A stretch of 64,000 bases of DNA. It comes from Alphaproteobacteria bacterium (GTDB lineage: Bacteria; Pseudomonadota; Alphaproteobacteria; JABAAW01; JAHZMA01). Positions 42,079 to 63,059 of the stretch are shown in pieces. Numbering within the stretch: the stretch's first letter is position 1; each line of letters starts with the position of its first letter. The notes beneath the pieces were generated by a model. That model worked only from the letters and a program-made list of their open reading frames with translations. It made no database searches and was not told where the DNA came from. The stretch lies in NCBI GenBank assembly GCA_965243045.1, contig CBDETR010000004.1:840821-904820 (forward strand), given 5' to 3'. A program made the translations under genes and the position numbers.

Positions 42079-44325
42079 ATGAAATTAACCGATACTGAAA
42101 TTCGTGATATTACCAAATCGTTGGAAGCGGGCAAGCCATTGCCTGATAAATACCGCTTTATGCTGTTTGATGATGACCGTCAAGTAGAATTGGTATGGAG
42201 TGGCAAAACGGCTGAAATCTGTAATGTTGTGCTTCCCTTTCAAATCATCGAACAGGTAGATGAGCCGCGCCGTAAGGATGCTGTGGCTGATGGGCAAATT
42301 GGTTTATTCGACCCCAATAGTGGCAGGCAATTAAAGGGGTGGAGCAATAAGCTGATATGGGGCGATAATAAACTGATTTTATCCTCGCTGAAAAATGGCA
42401 CGATGCGTGATGAGATTGAAAAGCAAGGTGGCATTAAGCTGATTTATATCGACCCGCCCTTTGATGTGGGTGCGGATTTTACGATGGATATTGCGGTAGG
42501 CGATGAAACCTTTACCAAACAGCCAAATATTTTGGAAGAGCTTGCTTACCGTGATACATGGGCAAAAGGCGCGGATAGTTTCATTGCGATGATTTATGAG
42601 CGGTTGATGCTGATGCGCGATTTGCTGGCAGATGATGGCAGTATTTATGTCCATTGCGATTGGCGCGTCAATGCCTATATCCGCCTCGCGATGGATGAGG
42701 TGTTCGGTAAAGGGAATTTTCGAAATCAAATTGTTTGGAAACGAACATCTGCACATAGTGATTCAAAAGGTTATGGTCAAATAAGTGATTTTATTGTTCA
42801 TTCAAGTAAAATGAATAATTATATATTTAATAAAATTTTCACTGCGTTTGACGATGATTATTTAAAACGATTTAATCATCAAGATTCCGATGGAAGAAAA
42901 TGGACTGATGGACCACTTACAGCATCAGGGTTAAGTGGTGGTGGTTATACATATACTTATAAAGGGATACACGGTTTTTGGAGATGTCCAGAAATTACCA
43001 TGCAAAAACTTGAAAAGGATAATAGACTTTATTTTACTACAGGGAATACAATTAGAATTAAGAAATATCTTGATGAGTTAGAAGGAAAACCACTTCAAAA
43101 TATATGGACTGATATTTTTCCTGTGAATTCCCAAGCAAAAGAAAAAGTTAACTATCCCACGCAAAAACCTGAAGCCTTGCTTGAGCGGATTATCAAAGCC
43201 TCATCGAATGAGGGTGATATTGTCGCTGATTTTTTTGCAGGTTCTGGCACAACATTGGCAGTGGCTGAAAAATTAGGGCGCAAATGGATAGGTTCGGATT
43301 TGGGAAAATTTGCCATTCATACCACCCGCAAACGCATGATTGCGGTGCAGAGGCAATTAAAAACTGATGGTAAATCATGGCGTGCTTTCGAGATACTTAA
43401 TCTTGGCAAATATGAACGGCAACATTATATTGGCGTTAATCTCAACCTGCCCGAAGCCGAACGTATCAAACAAATAAATGCCCGCGAAGCCAATTACACC
43501 GCAATGATTTTACATGCCTATCGCGCCGAAAAAAGTGAGAGTTTTAGCCATTTTCAAGGCAAAAAATTAGGACGGATGGTGGCGGTTGGCCCTATCAATT
43601 TGCCCGTAACACGGTTATTTGTAGAAGAATTGATTTTGCAATGTCGCAAGAATAATATTACGCAAATTGATATTTTGGCCTTTGAATTTGAAATGGGCTT
43701 ATTCCCATCAGTCCAAGAAGAAGCCAAAACCAAAGGCATTGATATGGCAATGAAATATATCCCCCGTGATGTGTTTGATAAACGCGCCATTGAAAAAGAC
43801 GAGGTGGTGTTTCATGATGTTTCTTATATAGAAGTGGAACGGGTTATAAAAGATGGCAAGCTGGCGGTAAAATTAACCGATTTTTCAGTCTATTATTCGC
43901 AAGATATGCTGGCAAATGTCATGGCGGGCTTGAAAAAGGGTAAGCAGAAGATTATTCTAACCGGTGGCAAAATCATCAAAATAGCCAAAGATAAAGAAGG
44001 GGTAGAAAGCCAAGAAATATTAACGCAAAATTGGCATGATTGGATTGATTATTGGGCAATAGATTTTGATTATGAATCGCGCCGTGAAATTATCAGGGTG
44101 AAAGATAGCGAAACAGATGAATATATAGAACAATGGAGCGGGGATTATATTTTTGAAAACAGGTGGCAATCCTTCCGCACCAAAAAAGACAAAAAGCTAG
44201 AATTTGAAAGTGTGGCTGTTGATATTGCGGGCGATAAAACCCGCAAGCATAAACGCAAAGTGGCCATAAAAGTGGTCGATATTTTCGGCAATGATACAAT
44301 GAAAATAATGGAGATAGTGGTATGA
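42079..44325 (+). CDS. mod: type III restriction-modification methyltransferase (Mod)
   Basis: NKLIWGDN, IYIDPPF, YPTQKPEALLERII, DFFAGSGTT, KVVDIFGND. Confidence 0.92.
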   Translation: MKLTDTEIRDITKSLEAGKPLPDKYRFMLFDDDRQVELVWSGKTAEICNVVLPFQIIEQVDEPRRKDAVADGQIGLFDPNSGRQLKGWSNKLIWGDNKLILSSLKNGTMRDEIEKQGGIKLIYIDPPFDVGADFTMDIAVGDETFTKQPNILEELAYRDTWAKGADSFIAMIYERLMLMRDLLADDGSIYVHCDWRVNAYIRLAMDEVFGKGNFRNQIVWKRTSAHSDSKGYGQISDFIVHSSKMNNYIFNKIFTAFDDDYLKRFNHQDSDGRKWTDGPLTASGLSGGGYTYTYKGIHGFWRCPEITMQKLEKDNRLYFTTGNTIRIKKYLDELEGKPLQNIWTDIFPVNSQAKEKVNYPTQKPEALLERIIKASSNEGDIVADFFAGSGTTLAVAEKLGRKWIGSDLGKFAIHTTRKRMIAVQRQLKTDGKSWRAFEILNLGKYERQHYIGVNLNLPEAERIKQINAREANYTAMILHAYRAEKSESFSHFQGKKLGRMVAVGPINLPVTRLFVEELILQCRKNNITQIDILAFEFEMGLFPSVQEEAKTKGIDMAMKYIPRDVFDKRAIEKDEVVFHDVSYIEVERVIKDGKLAVKLTDFSVYYSQDMLANVMAGLKKGKQKIILTGGKIIKIAKDKEGVESQEILTQNWHDWIDYWAIDFDYESRREIIRVKDSETDEYIEQWSGDYIFENRWQSFRTKKDKKLEFESVAVDIAGDKTRKHKRKVAIKVVDIFGNDTMKIMEIVV

Positions 44326-45515
44326 ATGATAATAAATATTCCAATAATCGGCGACATGCAAATAGGAGACATCACTCACCTAATAATATTCAAAAACCTG
44401 TTAATAAATTAAAAGAAATCACCATTAATGGATTTAAATCACTGGAAAAAATTGAAAAATTTTCTTTACAAGATTTAAATATTCTGGTTGGTGCTAATGG
44501 CGTTGGTAAATCCAATTTTTTAAATATTTTTGAAATGCTTAATTGGATGATACGTGGTAAAAATTTACAAGAATATATTTCTAGAAAAGGTGGCGGTGAT
44601 GATTTGCTTTTTAATGGTGCAAAACATACAAGGTCTATAGATTGTCTAATGACATTTTCAACAAGCACAGGAGAAACAGAGTATAGCTTTAATTTACAAC
44701 ATACAGACAATAATCAACTGACCTTTTCTCGTGAAGAATATAGATTCATGAGTGTAAGTGCACAAGAAATTAAGCGTAGTAAATCCAATTGGAAACAACT
44801 CGGCATCGGACATATGGAAGCTAAAATACTTGATAGTAATGATAAAACCGCGCAAGTAACGCGTAAAATTTTACAAAATTGTACTATCTATCAATTCCAT
44901 GATACTTCTGAAACCAGCCCATTAAAATTTAGTTCAGATATAACAGATAGAATTTTTTTGAAAGGCAATGGGCAAAATCTTGCATCTATTTTATATGATT
45001 TGCAACAAAATCAACATAAATATTATCAAGAAATTATTGAAAACATTCGTCTGGTATTGCCAATTTTTGCTGATTTTGAGTTACAACCCTATCATGGCAA
45101 AATTGCATTAAGATGGCGAAGGAATAATATGGATGATAAAACATTTGGAGCGCATTTAACATCAGATGGAACTTTACGCTTTTTTGCATTGGTTACATTG
45201 TTATGTTTACCAAAAGACAGAAAACCTGATGTACTGCTGTTAGATGAACCTGAATTGGGATTGCATCCTTATGCCATTTCATTATTGGCTGATTTGATTA
45301 AACGTCTAGCAAAAAGCAAGCAAGTAATTGTTGCAACGCAATCAGCACTCCTGCTAAACGAGTTTAATGCTGAAAATATTATTGTTGCAAATATGTCTGA
45401 TAATGGGGCAACAACAATGAAACGCCTTAAACAGAATGATTTAAAACAATGGCTTGATAAATATCAAATGGGCGAGTTATGGCAAAAAAATGTTTTTGGG
45501 GGCAACCCTAAATGA
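44322..45515 (+). CDS. AAA/ABC-type ATPase (AAA_15/AAA_21 family)
   Basis: GANGVGKSN, SDGTLRF, LLLDEPELGLHP, ATQS. Confidence 0.9.
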   Translation: MNDNKYSNNRRHANRRHHSPNNIQKPVNKLKEITINGFKSLEKIEKFSLQDLNILVGANGVGKSNFLNIFEMLNWMIRGKNLQEYISRKGGGDDLLFNGAKHTRSIDCLMTFSTSTGETEYSFNLQHTDNNQLTFSREEYRFMSVSAQEIKRSKSNWKQLGIGHMEAKILDSNDKTAQVTRKILQNCTIYQFHDTSETSPLKFSSDITDRIFLKGNGQNLASILYDLQQNQHKYYQEIIENIRLVLPIFADFELQPYHGKIALRWRRNNMDDKTFGAHLTSDGTLRFFALVTLLCLPKDRKPDVLLLDEPELGLHPYAISLLADLIKRLAKSKQVIVATQSALLLNEFNAENIIVANMSDNGATTMKRLKQNDLKQWLDKYQMGELWQKNVFGGNPK

Positions 45516-46066
45516 AAAGACTTGCCATTATTGTTGAAGGATTTACAGAACAAGATTTTGTTCAGACAATTCTAATAAATAATTTATCAAATTTACATAT
45601 TGCTTATATTAATTTAAGGGGAGGCAGAATATCAATAAATTCAATTATAAGAGATGTGAGTAATCTAATCGATAATTACGATTATGTCACAACATTGATT
45701 GATTATTATGGACTTAAAGAAACCAATAATAAAAGCATTGAAGAAATTGAGGTAGAACTACAACAAAAAATAGCAAATAATCGTTTTATCCCTTATATAC
45801 AAAAATATGAATTTGAAGCTTTACTTTTTTCTGATATAGCAAAGATAGAAAACAGTTTAGGGAAACGTTTCACACAAAAAAAGATAAAAAACAAGCCTGA
45901 AGAAATCAATCATAATAACCCCCCATCAAAATTATTGGCACGCATTTTCCCTGATTACATTAAAAGGTCACATGGGAATGCTATTTTAAAAGAAATAGGT
46001 TTGCAAAATATTAGAGAACAATGTCCTCGTTTTGATGAATGGATTAAAAAATTAGAAAAGTTGTAA
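45512..46066 (+). CDS. DUF4276 family (TOPRIM-like) protein
   Basis: IIVEGFTEQDF, TTLIDYYG, PYIQKYEFEALLFSD, PEEIN, PSK, CPRFDEWI. Confidence 0.85.
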   Translation: MKRLAIIVEGFTEQDFVQTILINNLSNLHIAYINLRGGRISINSIIRDVSNLIDNYDYVTTLIDYYGLKETNNKSIEEIEVELQQKIANNRFIPYIQKYEFEALLFSDIAKIENSLGKRFTQKKIKNKPEEINHNNPPSKLLARIFPDYIKRSHGNAILKEIGLQNIREQCPRFDEWIKKLEKL

Positions 46067-46067
46067 C

Positions 46068-48707
46068 ATGACCCTCTCGCCTAAATTCCCTGCATCGCCT
46101 CATGAAATTCTAGCCCCTGAAATTCGCTGGAAGCCCGATGCTACTCATGATGCGTTATTGCCACCCTTAGTGCAAGCCTTACGCACACAGGTGCAACAAT
46201 TCCGTGATGATGATTATGTCCAAGCAACCGCAACCAGTCGCACATTATTAAAATATTGGTTTCAAACCGAACATATCATGGGCGATATGATGAATGGAGG
46301 ACAAAGCTTTCAATATTATTTTGCCCAGCGTGAGGCAGTGGAAACCATCATTTATCTATATGATGTGATGCAGGCGAAAGATAAATATGATTTGATGCGT
46401 CTTGATGAAACGGGCAATATATCAGCAAGCATGTTTCCTGAAAATTGGTTGCGCTTTGTGATAAAAATGGCAACAGGTTCGGGCAAAACCAAAGTGATGA
46501 GTTTGATATTAGCATGGTGTTTTTATCATAAATTATATGAGGTGGGTTCTAACCTCGCCCGTAATTTTTTGGTGATTACCCCTAACATTATTGTGCTTGA
46601 TAGAATACGCAGTGATTTTGACGGGCTTAAGATTTTTTTCACCGACCCGGTCATTCCTGATAATGGCTACCAAGGGCAAAATTGGCGTGATGATTTTCAG
46701 CTTAATTTACATATCCAAGATGAGGTGAATATCATTAACCCAATTGGTAATATTTTCTTGACCAATATTCATAGAGTTTATACAGGTAACGAGGTTTTAC
46801 CCAGCGCAGATGATGATAACACAATGAATTATTTTTTAGGTAAACGCCCGACCTCAAGCGATGGTAAAATAGATTTAGGCAAAATTGTACGGAACATTGA
46901 TGAGCTGGTGGTGATTAATGATGAAGCGCATCATATCCATAATGATAAATTATCATGGTTTACCTCGCTTCAGGATATTCATCATCATTTGGTGCAAAAG
47001 GATAAATTCTTATCATTGCAAATTGATGTTACCGCAACACCAAAACATAATAATGGCAATATTTTTGTGCAAACCATTTCGGATTATCCGCTTGTGGAAG
47101 CCATATCGCAAAATGTGGTGAAGCATCCTGTTATTCCAGATGATGAATCTTGCGCAAAATTAATCGAAAAGCAAAGCTCAAAATTTACTGAAAAATATGC
47201 TGATTATATCAATCTAGGGGTGGAAGAATGGCGCAAGGTACATGCCGAGCATAAAAAATTAGGCAAGAAAGCTATTCTATTTATTATGACAGATGACATC
47301 ACAAATTGCGATGATGTGAAACAATATTTAGAACAAACCTATCCGCAATTTGAAAAAGCCGTGCTTGCTATTCATACCAATAAAAGCGGTGAGATAAAAG
47401 ATGATAAGGAATTACAAGAATTGCGTAAAGCAGCCAATGAAATAGATAGGCTTGATAATCCTTATAAAGCGGTGGTTTCTGTATTAATGCTAAAAGAAGG
47501 TTGGGATGTTAAAAATGTTACCACCATTGTAGGGTTGCGTGCTTATTCAGCCAAAAGTAATATTCTGCCCGAACAAACATTAGGGCGGGGTTTGCGCCGT
47601 ATGTATCCTGAAAACCAAGATGTGCCAGAATATGTCAGCGTGGTAGGCACAAAAGCCTTCATGGAATTTGTCAAAGAGATTCAACATGAAGGGGTGCGGT
47701 TAGAAGAAGTTGAAATGGGAGAAGGCACAAAACCTAAAACAGCATTAGTGATAGAAATTGATAAAGATAACAAAGCAAAAGATTTACAAAAACTAGATAT
47801 AGAAATCCCTATTCTCACAACAAGAATTTATCGCGATTATGAAAAATTATTAGACATTGAGTTGGAACAATTACCGTATCAAAAAATTATCTACCAGCAA
47901 TTTGAAAAAGATGGGGTAAGGGAGATTGTGTTTAAAGATATTGTCAGTGATGAGGTTAATCATACCACCCTATTAGATGATTGGGCAAACCTTGATTATC
48001 GCTCTGTGATTGGTTATTTTACCCGAACGGTCATGAAGGAATTAAGGTTGTTTTCTGGTTATGATATTTTATATGCTCTTATGAAAGAATTTATTACCCA
48101 TCATTTGTTTGATAAAGATATTATATTAAATGATGTGAATACGGTGATAAATTTATCCCAAATAGAAGTAACCCGCACCATTATTGAAACATTCGTTAAA
48201 ATCATCAATCAGCTCACAATATATGACAAAGGCACAACAGAAATAAGCGGTTCGCATAAATTGAGTAATATGAAACCTTTTCAAATGAAAGAAAAAGAGT
48301 TTTTAATACCGCAAAAAAGCATTGTAAATAAAATAGTAGGTGATAGCAATTTAGAACTGCGCTTTGCAGAATTTCTTGAAAATTGTAGTGATGTTATTGC
48401 CTATGGTAAAAATTATCTGGCCGTACATTTTAAGCTAGAATATGTAAGAGAAGATGGCAATATATCACATTATTACCCTGATTTTTTTGTTAAACAAACG
48501 GAAAAACAGATTTATATTGTAGAAACAAAAGGATTAGAAGATTTAGATGTGCCACATAAAATAAATCGATTGAAGCAATGGTGCGAAGATGTGAATAAAG
48601 TTTCAATGATAAAGTTTGGCTTTATCTTTGTTGATGAGGAAGGTTTTGATAAATATCGTCCATCATCTTTTGATGGTTTAATAAGAAGTTTTGTCAAATA
48701 CCAATAA
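46068..48707 (+). CDS. res: type III restriction endonuclease (Res)
   Basis: YFAQREAVET, MATGSGKT, NDEAHH, LKEGWDV, QTLGRGLR; C-terminal YYPDF...VETKG nuclease motif. Confidence 0.92.
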   Translation: MTLSPKFPASPHEILAPEIRWKPDATHDALLPPLVQALRTQVQQFRDDDYVQATATSRTLLKYWFQTEHIMGDMMNGGQSFQYYFAQREAVETIIYLYDVMQAKDKYDLMRLDETGNISASMFPENWLRFVIKMATGSGKTKVMSLILAWCFYHKLYEVGSNLARNFLVITPNIIVLDRIRSDFDGLKIFFTDPVIPDNGYQGQNWRDDFQLNLHIQDEVNIINPIGNIFLTNIHRVYTGNEVLPSADDDNTMNYFLGKRPTSSDGKIDLGKIVRNIDELVVINDEAHHIHNDKLSWFTSLQDIHHHLVQKDKFLSLQIDVTATPKHNNGNIFVQTISDYPLVEAISQNVVKHPVIPDDESCAKLIEKQSSKFTEKYADYINLGVEEWRKVHAEHKKLGKKAILFIMTDDITNCDDVKQYLEQTYPQFEKAVLAIHTNKSGEIKDDKELQELRKAANEIDRLDNPYKAVVSVLMLKEGWDVKNVTTIVGLRAYSAKSNILPEQTLGRGLRRMYPENQDVPEYVSVVGTKAFMEFVKEIQHEGVRLEEVEMGEGTKPKTALVIEIDKDNKAKDLQKLDIEIPILTTRIYRDYEKLLDIELEQLPYQKIIYQQFEKDGVREIVFKDIVSDEVNHTTLLDDWANLDYRSVIGYFTRTVMKELRLFSGYDILYALMKEFITHHLFDKDIILNDVNTVINLSQIEVTRTIIETFVKIINQLTIYDKGTTEISGSHKLSNMKPFQMKEKEFLIPQKSIVNKIVGDSNLELRFAEFLENCSDVIAYGKNYLAVHFKLEYVREDGNISHYYPDFFVKQTEKQIYIVETKGLEDLDVPHKINRLKQWCEDVNKVSMIKFGFIFVDEEGFDKYRPSSFDGLIRSFVKYQ

Positions 48708-48709
48708 TT

Positions 48710-48875
48710 ATTCCCCTATCCCATTATCAAAACTTGCTAGCAAGGCTTTAATATCACGGATGCGCCATTTAATTCCTCTAACCCGTTATATTTTTCATTA
48801 CATTGTTTTTTGCGTCATGGATGCGCCTTTCTCAGCTTTTGGCTGGGAAGCGGTGCTATATGTCCAAGCGTTTCG
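48710..48875. repeat. direct repeat copy (partner at 52558-52662); includes an AlpA-like C-terminal remnant on the minus strand
   Basis: ATTCCCCTA.CCAT.ATCAAAACTTGCTAGCAAGG...GCTATATGTCCAAGCGTTTCG shared; minus strand reads KWRIRDIKALLASFDNGIGE*. Confidence 0.8.
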
Positions 48876-48926
48876 ATGAGACATATACTGGCGATTATGT
48901 GCAAAATTTTTGAAAAATAATGCTAA

Positions 48927-49079
48927 TTATTTACTGTTGTTTTTTTGTGGGGGAGGTGGCGATTGAGGTAACATCGCTTTAGGTGGTTGCTGACCGTATG
49001 TTGCTGTACCTGGGCTTCCTTGAGGTTTCACCATACTAACAGGCGGTTGCTGACCTTCATTAAGTGTCTTTTTTGTCAT
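48927..49079 (-). CDS. small Pro/Gln-rich protein (or tail of a truncated membrane protein)
   Basis: GGAG about 8 nt before the ATG; repeated GQQPP motif. Confidence 0.4.
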   Translation of the reverse strand: MTKKTLNEGQQPPVSMVKPQGSPGTATYGQQPPKAMLPQSPPPPQKNNSK

Positions 49080-49152
49080 AGTATTTTCTCCAATAAATAT
49101 TGCTATTAAAATCAAAACAAATGATAGAATTAAAATCCAATCACGATAAACA

Positions 49153-49476
49153 TCAATTTTTTTGCATAACTTATGTTAGCACGGGGGTGCTGAAAATGTC
49201 ATCGATGGTTATTAAGAGTAATAGCGGGGGTTTGGGGGTTATTTTTATGCGTGGGCTTCTGCCTCACGCTATATAAAATGTCGCACCCCCATTAATAATG
49301 ATGTGCGGGGGTTTGGGGGTTGAGGCGAGTCCCGATGCCAGTTTTAAGTACAGCGGGGGGATTTTTAAGGCAAGCGCAAGCGATATAGTTAGCACGGGGG
49401 TGCGGGGGCATCGCGATATGGCGGGCTTGCCCTCGCCATGGACGCGTATGTCGACCCCCGCATTAATATCGAGCAT
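49153..49476. repeat. direct repeat copy B with nested modular repeat insertions
   Basis: Same as 40451-40636 plus an extra ~125 bp; 49224-49290 is a near-exact reverse complement of 55447-55513. Confidence 0.9.
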
Positions 49477-49558
49477 CGCACCCCCCTTTATAAATAATGT
49501 GGAGGTGGGGCGGTGGTGTAATAAGCATGATGCTTGGTGCATAAATTTTAAAATATTG

Positions 49559-51241
49559 TTAAGAATCATAGATACTAAAATTATTTTTGAATAATTCAAA
49601 TTCTTCTTTTTCAATAATAGGATTGAGGTCTTTCAATTTTGAATAATCTATAATAATGTTTTCTTTTAATTCTTTTTTAATATCGTCTTGTAACCAGCTA
49701 CTATTCCAAATTATAGTTTTCTTGTGCCTTACAATGTTACATATAGTTTTCTTGTGCCTTACAATGTTACATAAAGGGGTATCAGAAATAATTAATTTTT
49801 CATCATCTATTTTCAACCCTGTTGCTATTCTTTGCATCCAAATATGTAGATGTTCGGTATTGGGGAGGTTATTGAATTTTTTAATAACTTTTTTCAATAA
49901 TTTTTTCTTTTCTTCTTCATTTTTTATCCAACTTAAGAGATAACTTATAATAGCAGATATTTGGACATAAGCTTTAGGATTTTTATAAGCAATATCAGTA
50001 CAAATACTGATAAATAATGTTGGGTTTTTTTCATGTTTTTTAAAATCTTCTTGTTCCATATAATAATGAAGTCGGTAATAAAAATTTGTTAATGCGCTTA
50101 TTAGGCTACCTGAATTTGAGAATTGAGTGGCTAAATCATAGATTGTTAGCAAATGATTTCGTAAACTTGCTTCAATCATTTTTTGCTTCACTGCTTCAGG
50201 ATTTTCACCAGAAGCTTTTCTTTTCCAGTAAAAATTATCACCAATGACGGATTGTTTTTTCCAATAAATTTTGTCAGCTTTTATTGAATCAAAAATTAAT
50301 TCGTCTGAAAATTTTGTTTTTTCTGCATTGAGTTTTAAGCCAAGCTCAAACATAGTTTCAGTAAGGCATTTTACAATTTTTTGTCCATCTTGTCTTGAGT
50401 TGGTAAAAATTTTATAATCATCCCTATAGCGAATAATTTTGTAATTTTTTATTTTAATTTTTTTAATTTTTGAGGTTAGCATACAATCGCTATATCCCAA
50501 TAATATTTCTGCAATGAAATCCATTAGCACCGAACCTTGTGGAATACCATTGGTTTGACCGTGCGACATATCTGTTAAATGTTTATCAATAATATTTCCT
50601 ATTAAATTAGGATTATATCTGTCTTTTTTTGCGGAGCATTTACTATGAAGTGCCCATGCGATTGAATGTGTGTAAATCGAACCATAACAATCGGTAATAT
50701 CCGTTTGTGTTAGGCAATCATAATCTAATGCCATCTCGATAGATTTTTGTTCGATGCTTTGCCACCAATTTAATATTTGTTCTACTCTGTCAGTTTCTTC
50801 TGTTTGAGATTTTCGTGGTATGCTGGTGCATCGAATGTTTTTGTTTGTTTGAAGTTGTTCAAACCTTTCACAAATTAATTTCCAGCTTTCTTTTTTTGTT
50901 ATTTCATGCACAAGAGAAACATACAATGCGGGATGAATGAGTTCTAATGGCCGCCAAGCGTATTTTCCATCTTTATTAAACAATAATTTGTAATTAACAT
51001 CATCATAATTGCTTGGATTTTTTTTAGAAAAACATGGCTTTTTTTTAGAAAAACATGAAAGATTTTTTCTGCCTAAACATTCATCCATTTTTGATAAGAG
51101 AGGTTCAAAATTAAAATAATTTGGTAAGTCAAAATTACAGTAACTTTCTTGTTTCAGTAAAAAAGCTTTTGCCTCAACATTATTCATCTCTAATATAGTT
51201 TTACTTGTGTTTGATTGAGTCATGTTATTACCTTTAGCCAT
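49559..51241 (-). CDS. Abi-P2-like defence-associated reverse transcriptase
   Basis: RT motifs TDITDCYGSIYTHS, QTNGIPQGSVLMD, RYRDDY, LNAEKT; N-terminal SY..LP.Y.NF and KDG.Y.WR and C-terminal PNTE.L.IW.QR match Abi-P2 as recalled; start may be 51223. Confidence 0.85.
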   Translation of the reverse strand: MAKGNNMTQSNTSKTILEMNNVEAKAFLLKQESYCNFDLPNYFNFEPLLSKMDECLGRKNLSCFSKKKPCFSKKNPSNYDDVNYKLLFNKDGKYAWRPLELIHPALYVSLVHEITKKESWKLICERFEQLQTNKNIRCTSIPRKSQTEETDRVEQILNWWQSIEQKSIEMALDYDCLTQTDITDCYGSIYTHSIAWALHSKCSAKKDRYNPNLIGNIIDKHLTDMSHGQTNGIPQGSVLMDFIAEILLGYSDCMLTSKIKKIKIKNYKIIRYRDDYKIFTNSRQDGQKIVKCLTETMFELGLKLNAEKTKFSDELIFDSIKADKIYWKKQSVIGDNFYWKRKASGENPEAVKQKMIEASLRNHLLTIYDLATQFSNSGSLISALTNFYYRLHYYMEQEDFKKHEKNPTLFISICTDIAYKNPKAYVQISAIISYLLSWIKNEEEKKKLLKKVIKKFNNLPNTEHLHIWMQRIATGLKIDDEKLIISDTPLCNIVRHKKTICNIVRHKKTIIWNSSWLQDDIKKELKENIIIDYSKLKDLNPIIEKEEFELFKNNFSIYDS

Positions 51242-51338
51242 AAATTAAGGTGATAAATTAACTTAAAAATTAAATAATTGCTATTATAAACTTACATTCA
51301 CCCGCCTTGCCACATACTCACAGCCGTAAAGTTTTAGA

Positions 51339-51672
51339 AGTGCTCGCACTACGTACATTCCGCCCTTGAGTTTTTATCATAATTTTGTTAAGCTTATGAT
51401 GCCTTGTGATATAAAAATCACAAATAGGCAAACTGGGTTTCAACACCCGTATAGACGGCGATATTTCATCGTCGTTATGGAAACACAAAGTTTCCTACTG
51501 GCTAGCTTTGTGTTTCTGTGTTCTCGGTTCTTTGAACCGGGGACGATATTTATGTCCAAGTTGCTATTTCGGTAGTGACTAAAGAATATCGAGCTGTTTC
51601 TATACCAGCTGTTGAATCTCCGGTTCGCTAGAGAGCTAAATCTCTAGCGAGACGAACAGGAGATGCCGATAT
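51339..51672 (+). ncRNA. candidate highly structured RNA (about ten consecutive hairpins), unassigned
   Basis: Consecutive stems whose mismatches are G-U wobbles on the + strand, e.g. ACGGCGAT/ATCGTCGT, GGAAACACAAAG/CTTTGTGTTTCT, GTTCTCGGTTC/GAACCGGGGAC, AGTTGCTAT-TTCG-GTAGTGACT, TCGCTAGAGA/TCTCTAGCGA. Confidence 0.6.
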
Positions 51673-52090
51673 GGTTCTTTTTATCTCTATCATATTAATG
51701 CTATTCAGTCCGCTAGCATTGAGTGCATCCTACAATTATGATGCAACTATCATTCGTATCATTGATGGCGATACATTTGTCGCACGCATCAATATATTTC
51801 CTCGATTAGAAGCGATTTATTCAGTGCGAATTTTATCGATACAAGCCCCAGAATTAAGCGCAAAATGCCCTCAAGAAAAACAATTAGCAATACAAGCAAA
51901 GGCACGTTTACAAGAATTACTGCCCGTTGAAAGCAAGGTGCAACTTAAACATGTCAACAAGCTTGATAGTTTCGGGCGTGTGCTTGCCCATGTGCATCGT
52001 GATAAATATGGCGATATTGCTAACTGGCTTATCAAAGAAAACCATGCCGTGCCTAGCGCAAAAGGCAAAAAGCATCATTGGTGTGAGTGA
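51671..52090 (+). CDS. secreted thermonuclease (SNase/ParB-like) family protein
   Basis: Signal peptide, RIIDGDT, VRILSIQAPEL, DSFGRVLAHV; AGGAG RBS. Confidence 0.9.
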   Translation: MVLFISIILMLFSPLALSASYNYDATIIRIIDGDTFVARINIFPRLEAIYSVRILSIQAPELSAKCPQEKQLAIQAKARLQELLPVESKVQLKHVNKLDSFGRVLAHVHRDKYGDIANWLIKENHAVPSAKGKKHHWCE

Positions 52091-52205
52091 GGGCTTTATT
52101 ATTTAAGGGGGGTGTGACTTCGCATATTAATAAAAGGGGGTGCGGTATGGCTTATCGCGATTGAGGCATAAGCCCAATCGCTTGCCATAACCCCCAAACC
52201 CCCGC
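52088..52205. repeat. modular dispersed repeat
   Basis: GAGGGCTTTATTATTTAAGGGGGGTG (shared with about 55330) and a GGGGGTGCG-hairpin-ACCCCCAAACCCCCGC unit at 52136-52205. Confidence 0.85.
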
Positions 52206-52226
52206 GAACATACTAGCGCATCAATA

Positions 52227-52472
52227 TTGCACCCCCGTGAACGTTATTTTCCACTTATCCCTGAATTGATTGAAAAACCATCTGAAATATGGGTGAGCTT
52301 TGCCCGTGATAAAAAGACAGGTAAGGTTATTATCAGAAGGCGTTATGTCAAATTATTCAAACTAGCTGACAGCAAAGAACATGTTTCAATAGTGCTAGAC
52401 CAAGATAACCAGCACTGGTCGGCACTGACCTTTTTTCAAAGCACAGAAGATAGCAAACTCAACAATATATAG
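52227..52472 (+). pseudogene. fragment of a phage PBECR2-like nuclease-fold domain
   Basis: RERYFPLIPELIEKPSEIWV...GKVIIRRRYV pattern; no convincing start, begins right after a repeat. Confidence 0.55.
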
Positions 52473-52557
52473 AAAAAGATAGCAAAAATGCTTCAAATAT
52501 TTTTCCTACACAGGAAAAGGTATTTTTTGATTACACAACTATTTCATATAAATAAAG

Positions 52558-52662
52558 ATTCCCCTACCCATCATCAAAACTTGCTAGCAAGGTTTTAATA
52601 TCACGAATGCGCCTTTTCCCAAGCTTCGGCTGGGAGGTGGCGCTATATGTCCAAGCGTTTCG
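52558..52662. repeat. direct repeat copy (partner at 48710-48875)
   Basis: Matches 48710-48766 joined to 48820-48875 at an ATGCGCC microhomology. Confidence 0.8.
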
Positions 52663-52940
52663 TCAAAAAGCGCATCTATGCCACAAGATTTTTTTCGCAA
52701 ATCAAATGATAGTAAGGACAAAGAATACGATATTATTAGAAAATGCGCTTATTTAACTATCTATAAAAGTATTAAGGTTAAGTATGATTTAAGTTTCCGC
52801 AAGAATGATATTGAATTCTTAAAATCGTGCGAGGGTTGCCTTAAATAATTCACCCTTGATTGCAAACCTATAAAATAGTAATATCCTCCCTATCAAACAT
52901 ATGATGATTTGCGTTTATAAAAAGATAGGGGTGCAAACTC

Positions 52941-54162
52941 ATGAAAAAATTAGAATTAAAATATGTCGCTATTTTTTGTGCTTTTACCCTTGCCATTGCT
53001 GTTATTGCTTATTTTATCCTTGCTCCTACCCCTGAATATAATACCTCCCCCACCTCTGAATATGATTCAGATGCTTTAGTTGAAAGAGATGGTATTTATA
53101 ATGAAAAATTCTCTGATGTGCCTATCACGGGTGAAGTTATAGGCTATGATGAAGTTGAACAATTAGAAGCAACGCTTGATATCAAAGATGCCAAACAAGA
53201 TAATACACAAGATGAGTTTATTGAACTTTCTAATGAAAGTGAAAAGTTAGAAGCAACGCTTGATATCAAAGATGCCAAACAAGATAATAACCAAGATGAG
53301 CCTGTTGAACTTTCTAATGAAAGTGAAAAGTTAGAAGCAACGCTTGATATCAAAGATGCCAAACAAGATAATACACAAGATGAGCCTGTTGAACTTTCTA
53401 GCGAATATGGAAAATTAGAAGCAACGCTTGATATCAAAGATGCCAAACAAGATAATACACAAGATGAGTTTATTGAACTTTCTAATGAAAGTGAAAAGTT
53501 AGAAGCAACGCTTGATATCAAAGATGCCAAACAAGATAATAACCAAGATGAGCCTGTTGAACTTTCTAATGAATATGTGAAAAGTTAGAAGCAACGCTTG
53601 ATATCAAAGATGCCAAACAAGATAATACACAAGATGAGCCTGTTGAACTTTCTAGCGAATATGGAAAATTAGAAGCAACGCTTGATATCAAAGATGCCAA
53701 ACAAGATAATACACAAGATGAGCCTGTTGAACTTTCTAGCGAATATGGAAAAGCAACGCTTGATTAGAAGCAACGCTTGATATCAAAGATGCCAAACAAG
53801 ATAATACACAAGATGAGCCGCTTGTTGAACTTTCTAATGAAAGTGAAAAGTTAGAAGCAACGCTTGATATCAAAGATGCCAAACAAGATGCCAAACAAGA
53901 TAATAACCAAGATGAGCTTGTTGAAAGCGATAAAAGAAACGGACTTATTAAAACCTATTATCAAAATGGACAGTTAGAATCAGCCATTAATTACAAAAAT
54001 GGGAAACAAAATGGGCTTGCTGAACTTTATTACGAAAATGGTCGGTTATGGGAAAAGATTAATTACATAGCTGACAAACCAGATGGGCTTGTTGAAGTCT
54101 ATTATGTAAATGGACAGCTAAAGGGCAAGGGTAATTACAAAGATGGTAAATTGATAAAATAG
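52941..54162 (+). pseudogene. membrane-anchored MORN-variant (YwqK-like) repeat protein with an 84-bp VNTR, frameshifted
   Basis: N-terminal TM; LVERDGIY...TG; about nine 28-aa repeats; out-of-frame tail YYQNGQLESAINYKNGKQNG...GNYKDGKLIK*. Confidence 0.75.
53163..53925 (+). repeat. 84-bp tandem repeat, about nine copies
   Basis: TTAGAAGCAACGCTTGATATCAAAGATGCCAAACAAGAT... starts at 53163, 53247, 53331, 53415, 53499, 53585, 53669, 53764, 53851. Confidence 0.95.
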
Positions 54163-61661: not shown

Positions 61662-63059
61662 ATGAAAATCTCTTTAAAAAATATAGGGCTTTTGAAATCT
61701 GCAGATTTCGAAGTCAATGATTTAACCATTATTTGTGGTGAAAATAATACCGGTAAAACCTATGCCACCTACGCTTTTTATGGTTTTTTATCTGAATGGA
61801 GGAGTTTGTTAGGATATTTCAAGGATAGTCATTTAGAAAAATATGTTAATGTTTTAGATAAAGCAGAGATAGAAAAATTATATAATAATCGCAAATTAAC
61901 ATTAGCTATACCAACATTCAAACAAAAGATGCTTCTAATGTTCGAATCCTTCACAAATGAATATGTTGAGAAATTACCATCAATATTAGCATCAAATCAA
62001 AATTTCAAAAATAGCAAATTTGAGTTTGATATAACTGATGATGACATGGAAACAATATTAAGAGCATTAGAAATAGATAATACTACGATGGTTCTAAATG
62101 ATTATATTATAAAAGTCAAAAGAGATGCCGGTCATATTGAGTTTCACCTTCCGTTAGAATTCAATAAAGACGATGAGTATAAAGAAAATTATCTGGAAGC
62201 AATAAAACTTCTATTAAAATATTCTCTCATAGATAGAATTATCAGAAAACTTATTCCAAGTACATTTATTGTGACCGCCGAACGAACAGGCGCCAGTATA
62301 TTTCGTGATGAATTAAATATCAATCGTGCAAAATTTTTAGATGAGTTAAGAGACTTGCAAGCAGAAAGATTTATGGAATGGCGAAACAAAACTTTGCAAC
62401 AACAAAGCCGTTATCCCTTGCCTATCAAAGACAGCTTAAATTTTATCAATGATTTGCAATTTATTGCCAGAAGGGATAGCTATATTGCGAAAAAACATGC
62501 TGATATATTGCAAGATTTTACAGAAATCATCGGTGGAACATATATAGTGAACGAGGCTGGAATTTACTTTGCACCTAAGGGGAAAAAAACGAGACTCACT
62601 ATGGCAGAAAGTTCTAGCTCGGTACGTTCAATGATACATTTAAGTTTCTATTTGCGGCATGTTGCAGAAAAAGGTGATATTCTCATCATTGATGAGCCGG
62701 AACTTAACTTACATCCTAGCAATCAACGAAAAATTTCCCGCCTTTTTGCACGCTTGGTCAATGCTGGTATTAAGGTTTTTATTACCACCCATAGTGATTA
62801 TATTATCAGGGAGTTAAATACTCTTATTGCGCTAAAACAAAATAAAAAAGCGATAAAAAAAGTTAAAAAAGAATATGGCTACAAAGGTAATGAATTATTA
62901 AATGCAAAACAAATTAATGTCTATATCGCTGAAAATAACAAACTCGTTCCTGCTGAGATTACACAAGAGGGCGGCATTGATGTGAACAGTTTTGACGATG
63001 CTATTGAAGACATGAATAAAATTCAAGATGATATTCTTTTCGGAAGCGATGATGAGTGA
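61662..63059 (+). CDS. AAA_15/AAA_21-type ATPase
   Basis: GENNTGKT, AERTG, SSSSVRS, IIDEPELNLHPSNQ, ITTHSDY. Confidence 0.9.
   Translation: MKISLKNIGLLKSADFEVNDLTIICGENNTGKTYATYAFYGFLSEWRSLLGYFKDSHLEKYVNVLDKAEIEKLYNNRKLTLAIPTFKQKMLLMFESFTNEYVEKLPSILASNQNFKNSKFEFDITDDDMETILRALEIDNTTMVLNDYIIKVKRDAGHIEFHLPLEFNKDDEYKENYLEAIKLLLKYSLIDRIIRKLIPSTFIVTAERTGASIFRDELNINRAKFLDELRDLQAERFMEWRNKTLQQQSRYPLPIKDSLNFINDLQFIARRDSYIAKKHADILQDFTEIIGGTYIVNEAGIYFAPKGKKTRLTMAESSSSVRSMIHLSFYLRHVAEKGDILIIDEPELNLHPSNQRKISRLFARLVNAGIKVFITTHSDYIIRELNTLIALKQNKKAIKKVKKEYGYKGNELLNAKQINVYIAENNKLVPAEITQEGGIDVNSFDDAIEDMNKIQDDILFGSDDE

Follow-up and report, generated by a model that had tools for sequence, protein, structure and literature searches.

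The stretch of DNA analysed here (the window) comprises 64,000 nucleotides of contig CBDETR010000004.1 from an Alphaproteobacteria bacterium (assembly GCA_965243045.1). Within it, an AbiP2-type reverse transcriptase (RT) gene and a gene for an SNase-family nuclease are arranged divergently with 429 bases between them (Table 1). A preliminary description, made from the letters and their open reading frames, had read this gap as a structured RNA and had inferred a bias towards the + strand from the G-T pairs recurring in its stems. Both proposals were borne out by folding. Treated as RNA, the + strand of 51242-51670 reached -128.8 kcal/mol, while 100 dinucleotide shuffles averaged -94.1 +/- 5.4 (z -6.44) and none folded as well; the same shuffle test gave z -3.68 for the minus strand. 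The hairpin-rich gap is real and functional-looking. It also lacks, as had been noted, tRNA and tmRNA hallmarks: ARAGORN found neither tRNA nor tmRNA in the gap, a search of 49000-53000 of the window at E values up to 10 returned no Rfam family matching it, and Rfam in E-value mode placed no family on the RNA in seven family loci.

Comparison of the gap with the window's own genome (G000) revealed three further matches. Two of them, L003 (76% identity) and L004 (73%), are each followed immediately by an SNase paralogue and have no RT in their vicinity; a gene resembling by eye a phage tail-fibre gene stands upstream of L003, and a pentapeptide-repeat gene upstream of L004. The third (window 49476-51567 = G000 C3:14125-16204) is on contig C3, where the RT gene and the initial two thirds of the RNA recur at 98% identity; this duplicate breaks inside hairpin H6 and continues into unrelated sequence, with a Mu gp16-like gene (by eye) ~1.3 kb past the break. 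Homology between the SNase cassettes begins at the -35 element (window position 51365) and stops with the SNase stop codon at 52090. Across the copies the leader retains 73-76% nucleotide identity against 50-70% for the SNase proteins, and the corresponding values for the sister genome G003 are 73-75% and 50-53%. Conservation of the cassette opens at a promoter-like pair (TTGAGT, 17 nt, TGnTAAGCT), from which transcription would start near 51400; at the matching position, the stand-alone copies described below carry TTGCAT, 17 nt and TATAAT.

A covariance model built from six SNase leaders and a hand-drawn structure (R1) returned 25 rows in all four genomes of the family (6 in G000, 5 in G002, 12 in G003 and 2 in G001). 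One row was the palindromic H4 read on the opposite strand, leaving 24 loci, and R1 found nothing in seven genomes of a sister family (64-91% complete). Eight of the 24 copies precede an SNase paralogue, with the gene start at a fixed distance from the RNA in all eight. Two precede a 233-244 aa exported protein, one of which has a below-cut-off outer-membrane beta-barrel match, two a Bor lipoprotein (Pfam E 2.3e-21) or a 45-aa frame with the same N-terminus, and one a 135-aa protein with a hydrophobic N-terminus. One copy has nothing within 300 nt and a methylase fragment beyond, one is the truncated duplicate on C3, and nine are stand-alone units. Among the 12 SNase paralogues of the family, the eight closest carry the RNA and the four at 38-39% identity do not.

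The distribution of these copies bears on the proposal, made in the preliminary description, of a retron-like template RNA produced with the RT. Only two of the 24 copies adjoin an RT, and those two represent one 98% duplication; consistent co-occurrence with an RT gene is lacking. Transcription of the region with the AbiP2 RT on the minus strand, as a template or primer RNA in the manner of retrons or of DRT2 and DRT9, could be argued from its position directly upstream of the RT start, from the duplication of the RT together with the first two thirds of the RNA, and from the adjacent non-coding RNAs of the UG2, UG3+UG8, UG28 and UG27 RT groups (PMC9226505). The part of that UG/Abi survey available to us names non-coding RNAs for UG2, UG3+UG8, UG27 and UG28 and not for AbiP2 (PMC9226505). 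Against such a role, 22 of the 24 copies have no adjacent RT; it is the + strand, opposite to the RT, that carries the conserved promoter and the G-U pairs and that folds better; and the duplication cuts the RNA inside H6. AbiP2 is rare in the class: among 401 genomes, full-length matches occur in the window's own genome alone (the two duplicated copies), and G003 and G001, with their 12 and two RNA copies, respectively, have no match. Four weaker RT-like loci from other parts of the class all lack the RNA. We therefore regard an RT template as highly improbable. The RNA resembles those of defence RTs (retron msr/msd, DRT2/UG2, DRT3 and DRT9/UG28) in being structured, a few hundred nucleotides long and beside a defence RT in a defence island, but differs from them in lacking RT co-occurrence, in lying on the opposite strand and in its linkage to the gene on the other side. 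The adjacency is best explained by both genes being cargo of one island. The AbiP2 RT gains no template RNA here, and the locus gives no reason to doubt the description of this RT as template-independent.

The RNA is predicted to fold into a 5' hairpin (H1), a long-range helix (P1) closing a junction of five hairpins (H3-H7), and a last hairpin (H8) (Table 1). In 19 family copies, 90.2% of alignment cells pair, against 36-49% when the partners are slid by one to three columns, and 58 of 72 pairs have changed on both sides, against 19-23 in the slid controls. With 36 copies, 14 of them from other families, the values are 90.9% (38-47% slid likewise) and 67 of 72 pairs (25-36 slid). None of 500 shuffles reached the observed values in either set, and although the rows are related to one another the margin over the slid controls is still large. 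The RNA structure is under selection, and the covariation that the preliminary description had proposed to seek among homologous leaders is present. Pairs were counted on model-fitted alignments because the MAFFT alignment of all subfamilies (A7) places the P1 3' strand one column out of register between subfamilies. Within P1, the P1b segment is paired in 99.5% of cells, with six of six pairs changed on both sides, and P1a in 87.6%. H4 is reduced, often tiny, or absent in relatives from other families. The H6 loop ATGTCCAAG (51552-51560) is near-invariant, ATGTCCA and AAA being invariant in a 22-sequence alignment; the RNA thus combines a covarying fold with invariant unpaired nucleotides, as a riboswitch-type sensor does. 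A tRNA-like NCCA end follows S4 in most relatives (NCUA or NCCC in most family copies) and is base-paired inside H8.

Table 1. Parts of the leader and neighbouring features of the window. Percentages give the alignment cells that pair; fractions give the pairs changed on both sides.
Feature	Position	Strand	Details
-35-like hexamer TTGAGT	51366-51371	+	conservation among the six SNase-leader copies starts here (TTGAGT, TTGAAA or TTGCAA); 17 nt to the -10 element
Extended -10 element TGTTAAGCT	51386-51394	+	pattern TGnTAnnnT; TG, TA and final T invariant in 6/6 copies
H1, 5' hairpin GCCTTGTGAT / ATCACAAATAGGC	51401-51429	+	helices 1 and 2, 80.5% and 92.1%; 7/7
P1 5' strand	51431-51444	+	S1 AACTGGG (51431-51437), P1b TTCAAC (51439-51444); partner 51611-51625
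H3 hairpin GACGGCGAT / ATCGTCGT	51454-51475	+	helices 5 and 6, 87.6% and 80.4%; 6/6
H4 long hairpin GGAAACACAAAGT / GCTTTGTGTTTCT	51479-51517	+	helices 7 and 8, 93.8% and 91.5%; 13/13
H5 hairpin	51520-51544	+	S2 GTTCTCGGTTC (51520-51530) with S3 GAACCGGGGAC (51534-51544); helices 9-11, 82.7-93.0%
H6 hairpin	51545-51590	+	stem GATATTT / GAATATC, inner hairpin 51562-51577; helices 12 and 13, 95.6% and 95.5%
H7 hairpin AGCTG / CAGCT	51592-51610	+	helix 14, 94.1%; 5/5
P1 3' strand	51611-51625	+	P1b GTTGAA (51611-51616), S4 TCTCCGGTT (51617-51625); pairs with S1, S3 or GGAGAT
ATCTCC, strand able to shut the ribosome-binding site	51616-51621	+	complementary to GGAGAT at 51659-51664
H8 hairpin CGCTAGAG / CTCTAGCG	51626-51649	+	helix 15, 92.0%; 7/7
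SNase ribosome-binding site GGAGAT (S5)	51659-51664	+	6 nt before the ATG at 51671
SNase-family nuclease gene	51671-52090	+	139 aa; Pfam SNase E 1.1e-05, 26.3 bits, cut-off 21
AbiP2-type RT gene	49559-51241	-	PADLOC AbiP2, E 2.4e-188
Decayed internal fragment, stand-alone-type copy of the RNA family	48790-48878	+	R2 17.4 bits, E 0.0064, at 48819-48946
HEC-01A/HEC-01B pair	42079-48707		between type III methylase and ResIII helicase genes; E 1.6e-128 and 4.1e-51
PD-T4-4_A homologue	61662-63059		E 7.9e-136; 10 kb downstream

Seven of the nine stem-loops first listed for the gap coincide with covarying helices: 51400-51430 (H1), 51451-51478 (H3), 51479-51517 (H4), 51520-51544 (H5), 51559-51580 (the inner hairpin of H6), 51592-51610 (H7) and 51616-51664 (H8). 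The other two do not. The stem-loop at 51376-51400 falls inside the conserved promoter spacer, 5' of the putative RNA start, and that at 51434-51449 (GGGT/ACCC) is a local alternative to the strongly covarying long-range helix P1. An RNAalifold pairing of the promoter region with 51630-51650 was rejected, as it reaches upstream of the putative RNA start.

The covariation also speaks to the view that the region is a repeat element without RNA function or a small coding gene (a 69-aa frame, 51366-51575). Short repeats abound in the genome, some of them flanking the module, and a frame of 69-70 aa is open in both the window and L003. Compensatory changes in nearly all pairs (67/72), a promoter and terminators at fixed places, retention of the RNA in 12 or more other families of the class and the opening of the 69-aa frame in just two of six close copies make this view very hard to sustain, and the frame was rejected as a gene. 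Two further frames were discarded. A small frame at the invariant ATG (MSK...), judged by reading the sequences of the copies, closes after 6-7 codons in some and runs for at least 20 in others, and the stand-alone copies have one-base indels 3' of the ATG. An in-frame 5' extension of the SNase gene is open in the L003 and G003 copies and is closed by stop codons in the window. The earlier suggestion that the gap is a remnant of another element does not suit the window copy, which is complete; the remnants nearby are the fragment at 48790-48878 and the truncated C3 copy.

Relatives of the RNA were sought more widely in a sample of the class with one genome per family (151 genomes). The model used (R2) was built for the 3' half; with 17 pairs, the consensus structure assigned to it automatically is poor, and the model acts mostly as a sequence model. 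R2 matched 12 of the 150 other genomes, all of 1.4-2.5 Mb; one of the 12, G050, is unpublished, and no further claim rests on it. R1 aligned 14 of 16 relatives over the full architecture or most of it. By a tally from the table of open reading frames, about 12 of the 16 have a same-strand frame starting within about 50 nt of the RNA 3' end, and most end in a terminator-like hairpin with a U run. PADLOC matched five of 14 downstream frames to defence genes, and the other nine matched nothing. Frames downstream of relatives were assigned to PD-T4-3 (E 4e-108), PDC-S11 (E 3e-96), PDC-S26 (E 3e-26) and a type IIG restriction-methylase (E 2e-212), and the second gene downstream in a relative to UzuA. 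WYL-domain regulators lie just 5' of the RNA in two relative loci, and a divergent Abi_2 gene in one.

Three of these relatives connected the RNA to sRNA-Xcc1 (RF02221), a small RNA (sRNA) family that has been in Rfam for more than a decade with a model of 87 nt. In Rfam's E-value mode, RF02221 matched exactly on their 3' domain at 38.6-40.7 bits (threshold 53). Searched through the class sample, RF02221 scored above threshold in five of 151 genomes and gave sub-threshold matches at the R2 coordinates in eight of the 12 R2-positive genomes; for relatives that our own models find at E values of 1e-14 to 1e-6, the RF02221 scores at identical coordinates are 32-41 bits. The window copy does not reach the gathering threshold of 53 bits and is unmatched by RF02221 at E values up to 10. 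In the reverse direction, R1 found none of 12 loci picked by RF02221, and R2 matched them weakly (7.8-18.7 bits). Genes behind these RF02221 loci, whether the loci score above the threshold or just under it, encode a weak Rha-like protein, a helix-turn-helix protein, a DNA methylase and unknowns. The window RNA thus appears linked to Xcc1 through intermediates and architecture while failing the family's own score test. A 33.6-bit RF02221 hit in the window's genome (G000:C4:1775669-1775756, minus strand), missed by both R1 and R2, may be another, different Xcc1-type RNA. Elsewhere in the sample, L087 (G024:C1:749745-751817) contains three above-threshold sRNA-Xcc1 copies exactly 994 nt apart, a tandem array like that of Xylella.

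The architecture shared with sRNA-Xcc1 is a three-way junction made of an outer G-rich/C-rich helix (here S3:S4), a first hairpin with a conserved A/U-rich loop, a second hairpin and a terminator-type hairpin. Both RNAs are found upstream of a same-strand cargo gene, and both are multi-copy on mobile or defence islands (PMC12189769). In Xylella, the accessible account gives seven Xcc1 copies, five of them in tandem in a genomic island, and a genome whose Rfam hits to Xcc1, isrK and C4 share a strand and span ~400 nt or less (PMC12189769). In APSE phages, Xcc1 lies upstream of an ORF6N-domain protein (10.1101/2020.03.17.996009), and in the commonest Xanthomonas integron cassette it precedes the toxin gene symE and is oriented like it (10.1101/2025.06.18.660453). 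The family has been annotated in plant pathogens, aphid-symbiont phages and integrons, and no mechanism is proposed in the accessible portions of these accounts. The window copy lies in a defence island with flanking short repeats, and L003 stands after the tail-fibre-like gene. The window RNA differs from sRNA-Xcc1 in having ~130 extra 5' nt (H1, S1/P1b, H3, H4 and S2), in that these build a covarying long-range helix competing with the Xcc1 outer helix, and in being fused to the mRNA without a terminator. These comparisons suggest that, in at least one large branch, the 87-nt Rfam model is just the 3' domain of a larger RNA, and that this larger RNA has two mutually exclusive folds, each with covariation support. 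The literature searched, supplements excepted, contained no link of Xcc1-type RNAs to defence genes and no account of the 5' domain.

The two folds compete for the C-rich strand S4 (AUCUCCGG), which has three possible partners: S1, S3 and the ribosome-binding site. In the Xcc1-type fold, S3 (GAACCGGGG, the 3' arm of H5) pairs with S4 (CUCCGGUUC, in the P1 3' strand). Even in an alignment fitted to the competing P1 fold (A10), S3:S4 pairs in 78.0% and 87.0% of cells with six of nine pairs changed on both sides, and the fold including H6 and H7 has 91.0% of cells paired overall. S2, which pairs with S3 in H5, is a near copy of S4. As the preliminary description had pointed out, ATCTCC is complementary to the GGAGAT of the SNase ribosome-binding site; the two are paired in the single-sequence minimum-energy fold, and their helix encloses H8. 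A second pairing proposed there, of ATATCG with CGATAT over the start codon, exists in the window copy and is missing from the G003 copies. The fit between S4 and its own site was examined in the 27 copies with a reading frame starting near the RNA 3' end. S4 pairs with its own ribosome-binding region at a mean of -9.70 kcal/mol, against -8.12 with those of other copies, and one of 5000 permutations was as low. S4 and the ribosome-binding flanks co-vary, as in GUAUCUCC/GGAGAUAC, UAACUCC/GGAGUUA and AACUCCC/GGGAGUU.

We lean, by a modest degree, towards reading 51366-51670 as a promoter followed by a ~270-nt structured + strand 5' leader (about 51401-51670) of the SNase mRNA that would gate its translation, and as a divergent, 5'-extended member of the sRNA-Xcc1 superfamily. 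A + strand leader gating nuclease translation was among the options first set out; conservation from the promoter to the SNase start codon, the covariation and the fit of S4 to its own site all argue for it, and translation gating through S4, modelled from these pairings, stands at about even odds. In this mechanism, S4 would be the anti-ribosome-binding-site strand. While held in the RNA's own fold, by S1 in P1 or by S3 in the three-way junction, it would leave the ribosome-binding site free and the SNase would be translated; were that fold lost or rearranged, S4 would pair with GGAGAU and shut translation. Candidate triggers include a ligand or protein, processing of the RNA, temperature and infection. 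The transcript ends, switching in cells and the direction of switching are parts of this mechanism that we infer.

Leaders that shut a ribosome-binding site, such as translational riboswitches and RNA thermometers, offer a parallel in that a leader strand is complementary to the site and has competing partners, and in that terminator-type and ribosome-binding-site-type platforms occur within one family; both kinds occur in the family described here, although the terminator-type copies have no gene downstream and their terminator barely overlaps the switching strand. The c4 RNA of the phage P1/P7 immunity operon is a further comparison for such leaders. The downstream genes of the window RNA family, unlike those of riboswitches, share no metabolic theme, and Rfam models of riboswitches, thermometers, C4 and isrK do not match the region.

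Several observations weigh against a translational gate. A consensus promoter scan of the window does not list the proposed promoter, so the promoter had to be deduced from conservation; it, the RNA start and co-transcription with the SNase gene are all read from sequence. Among the sequencing runs listed, none is on record as RNA; three DNA-type runs of one study contain the stretch. The pair counts from A6 and A10 are tilted in favour of the model, since both alignments had been fitted to it. When S1:S4 and S4 with the ribosome-binding site were forced in turn in the six SNase leaders, the two states lay 0.1-8.1 kcal/mol apart with three copies favouring each, so that the sign of the energy gap is inconsistent. 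The test of S4 against its own site used a crude caller of open reading frames and included doubtful starts and related rows, and some complementarity to a ribosome-binding site is trivially expected of any CUCC strand. The downstream genes have no common function hinting at a ligand, and a coherent gene set of the riboswitch kind is therefore lacking. In other bacteria, the 22 more distant SNase loci all lack the RNA; this and the four of 12 family paralogues without it rule out an SNase-specific linkage. Nine stand-alone copies with strong terminators have no downstream gene, so that the RNA is kept there with nothing to gate. Finally, sRNA-Xcc1 was mapped in Xanthomonas at 88 nt, with a ~100-nt band, as a free sRNA (PMC2996969).

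The last two points also favour the main rival, a free trans-acting Xcc1-type sRNA that would comprise the full ~260 nt or, after processing, the ~95-nt three-way junction, with the SNase gene placed incidentally behind a decayed terminator that is read through. Each stand-alone unit consists of a near-consensus promoter of its own, an RNA of ~260 nt and a perfect terminator, with a second terminator ~95 nt later. In most relatives the RNA finishes with a U run behind a terminator-like hairpin, and H8 of the window is the counterpart of the stand-alone terminator stem AGCTACTAGAG..CTAGTAGCTTTTTT, although the terminator scan of the window does not list H8, which is followed by no T run. The near-invariant loop AUGUCCAAG could in addition seed target pairing. 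Set against this are the same-strand gene within about 50 nt in about three quarters of the relatives (~12/16), the fixed distance in all eight close SNase paralogues, and ribosome-binding regions that change along with S4; no targets are known. We rate a free RNA as the sole function as rather unlikely, and both roles could be true. The two-terminator copies (L054, L056-L059, L047, L050, L053 and L061) share a conserved stretch between the terminators (GAAACGCTTATTTGGTTAACAACCGC...), and read-through of the first would add a defined 3' extension.

The kinds of genes that follow the RNA were considered also in terms of an antitoxin-like RNA that would neutralise or restrain the downstream nuclease, comparable to type III or type I toxin-antitoxin systems, the ratio of the two being set by the intervening hairpin or terminator. 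Type III systems (ToxI/ToxN) have the order promoter, RNA, hairpin or terminator and nuclease gene, with tandem repeats in the RNA that are processed by the toxin, a cytoplasmic endoribonuclease. The window shares that order, and PD-(D/E)XK, GIY-YIG (PD-T4-3), Mrr-type and SNase nucleases all occur downstream of the RNA; the symE toxin gene of the Xanthomonas cassettes fits as well (10.1101/2025.06.18.660453). The window RNA, however, has no tandem repeats (Tandem Repeats Finder reported no array in 51240-51700 at a minimum score of 30), H8 lacks a T run, and many other kinds of gene follow the family, among them harmless exported proteins (Bor and the outer-membrane beta-barrel-like protein). 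The protein here is a predicted exported SNase-fold DNA/RNA nuclease rather than a cytoplasmic endoribonuclease; with its hydrophobic N-terminus it would need no cytoplasmic antidote. We consider an antitoxin role improbable.

Taken with the translational gate favoured above, the occurrence of the RNA before nucleases, phage-defence genes and exported prophage proteins is best explained by a superfamily that travels as a module. It suggests an RNA with its own promoter placed directly before cargo genes, including single-gene phage-defence nucleases, and recasts a "virulence-associated sRNA" as a testable cis-acting gate for mobile-element cargo. More speculatively, and with a small likelihood in our estimate, the Xcc1 superfamily could be a portable two-state sensor RNA before costly or dangerous mobile-element cargo (defence nucleases, toxins and prophage conversion genes), flipped by a signal between the P1 fold and the three-way junction. 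The invariant loop and the junction would then bind a cellular or phage signal (a small molecule, a protein or an RNase), the flip would free or shut the ribosome-binding site or the terminator, and these strands might also be targeted in trans by the stand-alone copies. If true, this would amount to an RNA-level switch for phage-defence genes.

The defence island around the RNA contains, in order, the type III methylase, the HEC-01A/B pair, the ResIII helicase, the AbiP2 RT, the RNA with the SNase gene and, further on, PD-T4-4_A (Table 1). The fragment at 48790-48878 (~90 nt) lies just after the ResIII gene; it is stand-alone-like from the H4 3' arm to ATGTCCAAGCGTTTCGATG and then diverges. 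The window's own genome has no intact stand-alone copy. Short repeats of ~80 nt, found at more than 60 sites of the genome, flank the RT-RNA-SNase module at about 49150-49330 and 52093-52215, and several stand in tandem just 5' of the L003 cassette. In G001, two RNA copies lie 1.5 kb apart (L040/L044, G001:C2:51520-53306), one before a full Bor-like lipoprotein gene and the other before a 45-aa frame.

The SNase protein of the window also matches the PHROG 452 endonuclease (E 2.2e-15). Its N-terminus is hydrophobic and, judged by eye, signal-peptide-like, and secretion is predicted. The motif reads IQAPE in the window and L004, IDAPE in L003 and IDTPE in the G003 copies. The Asp-Thr at this position binds calcium in staphylococcal nuclease, so the window and L004 paralogues may be weakened or altered enzymes. 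At L007 (G003:C2:1153-1485), the SNase paralogue ends early at a TAA (123 aa) and the leader RNA is intact.

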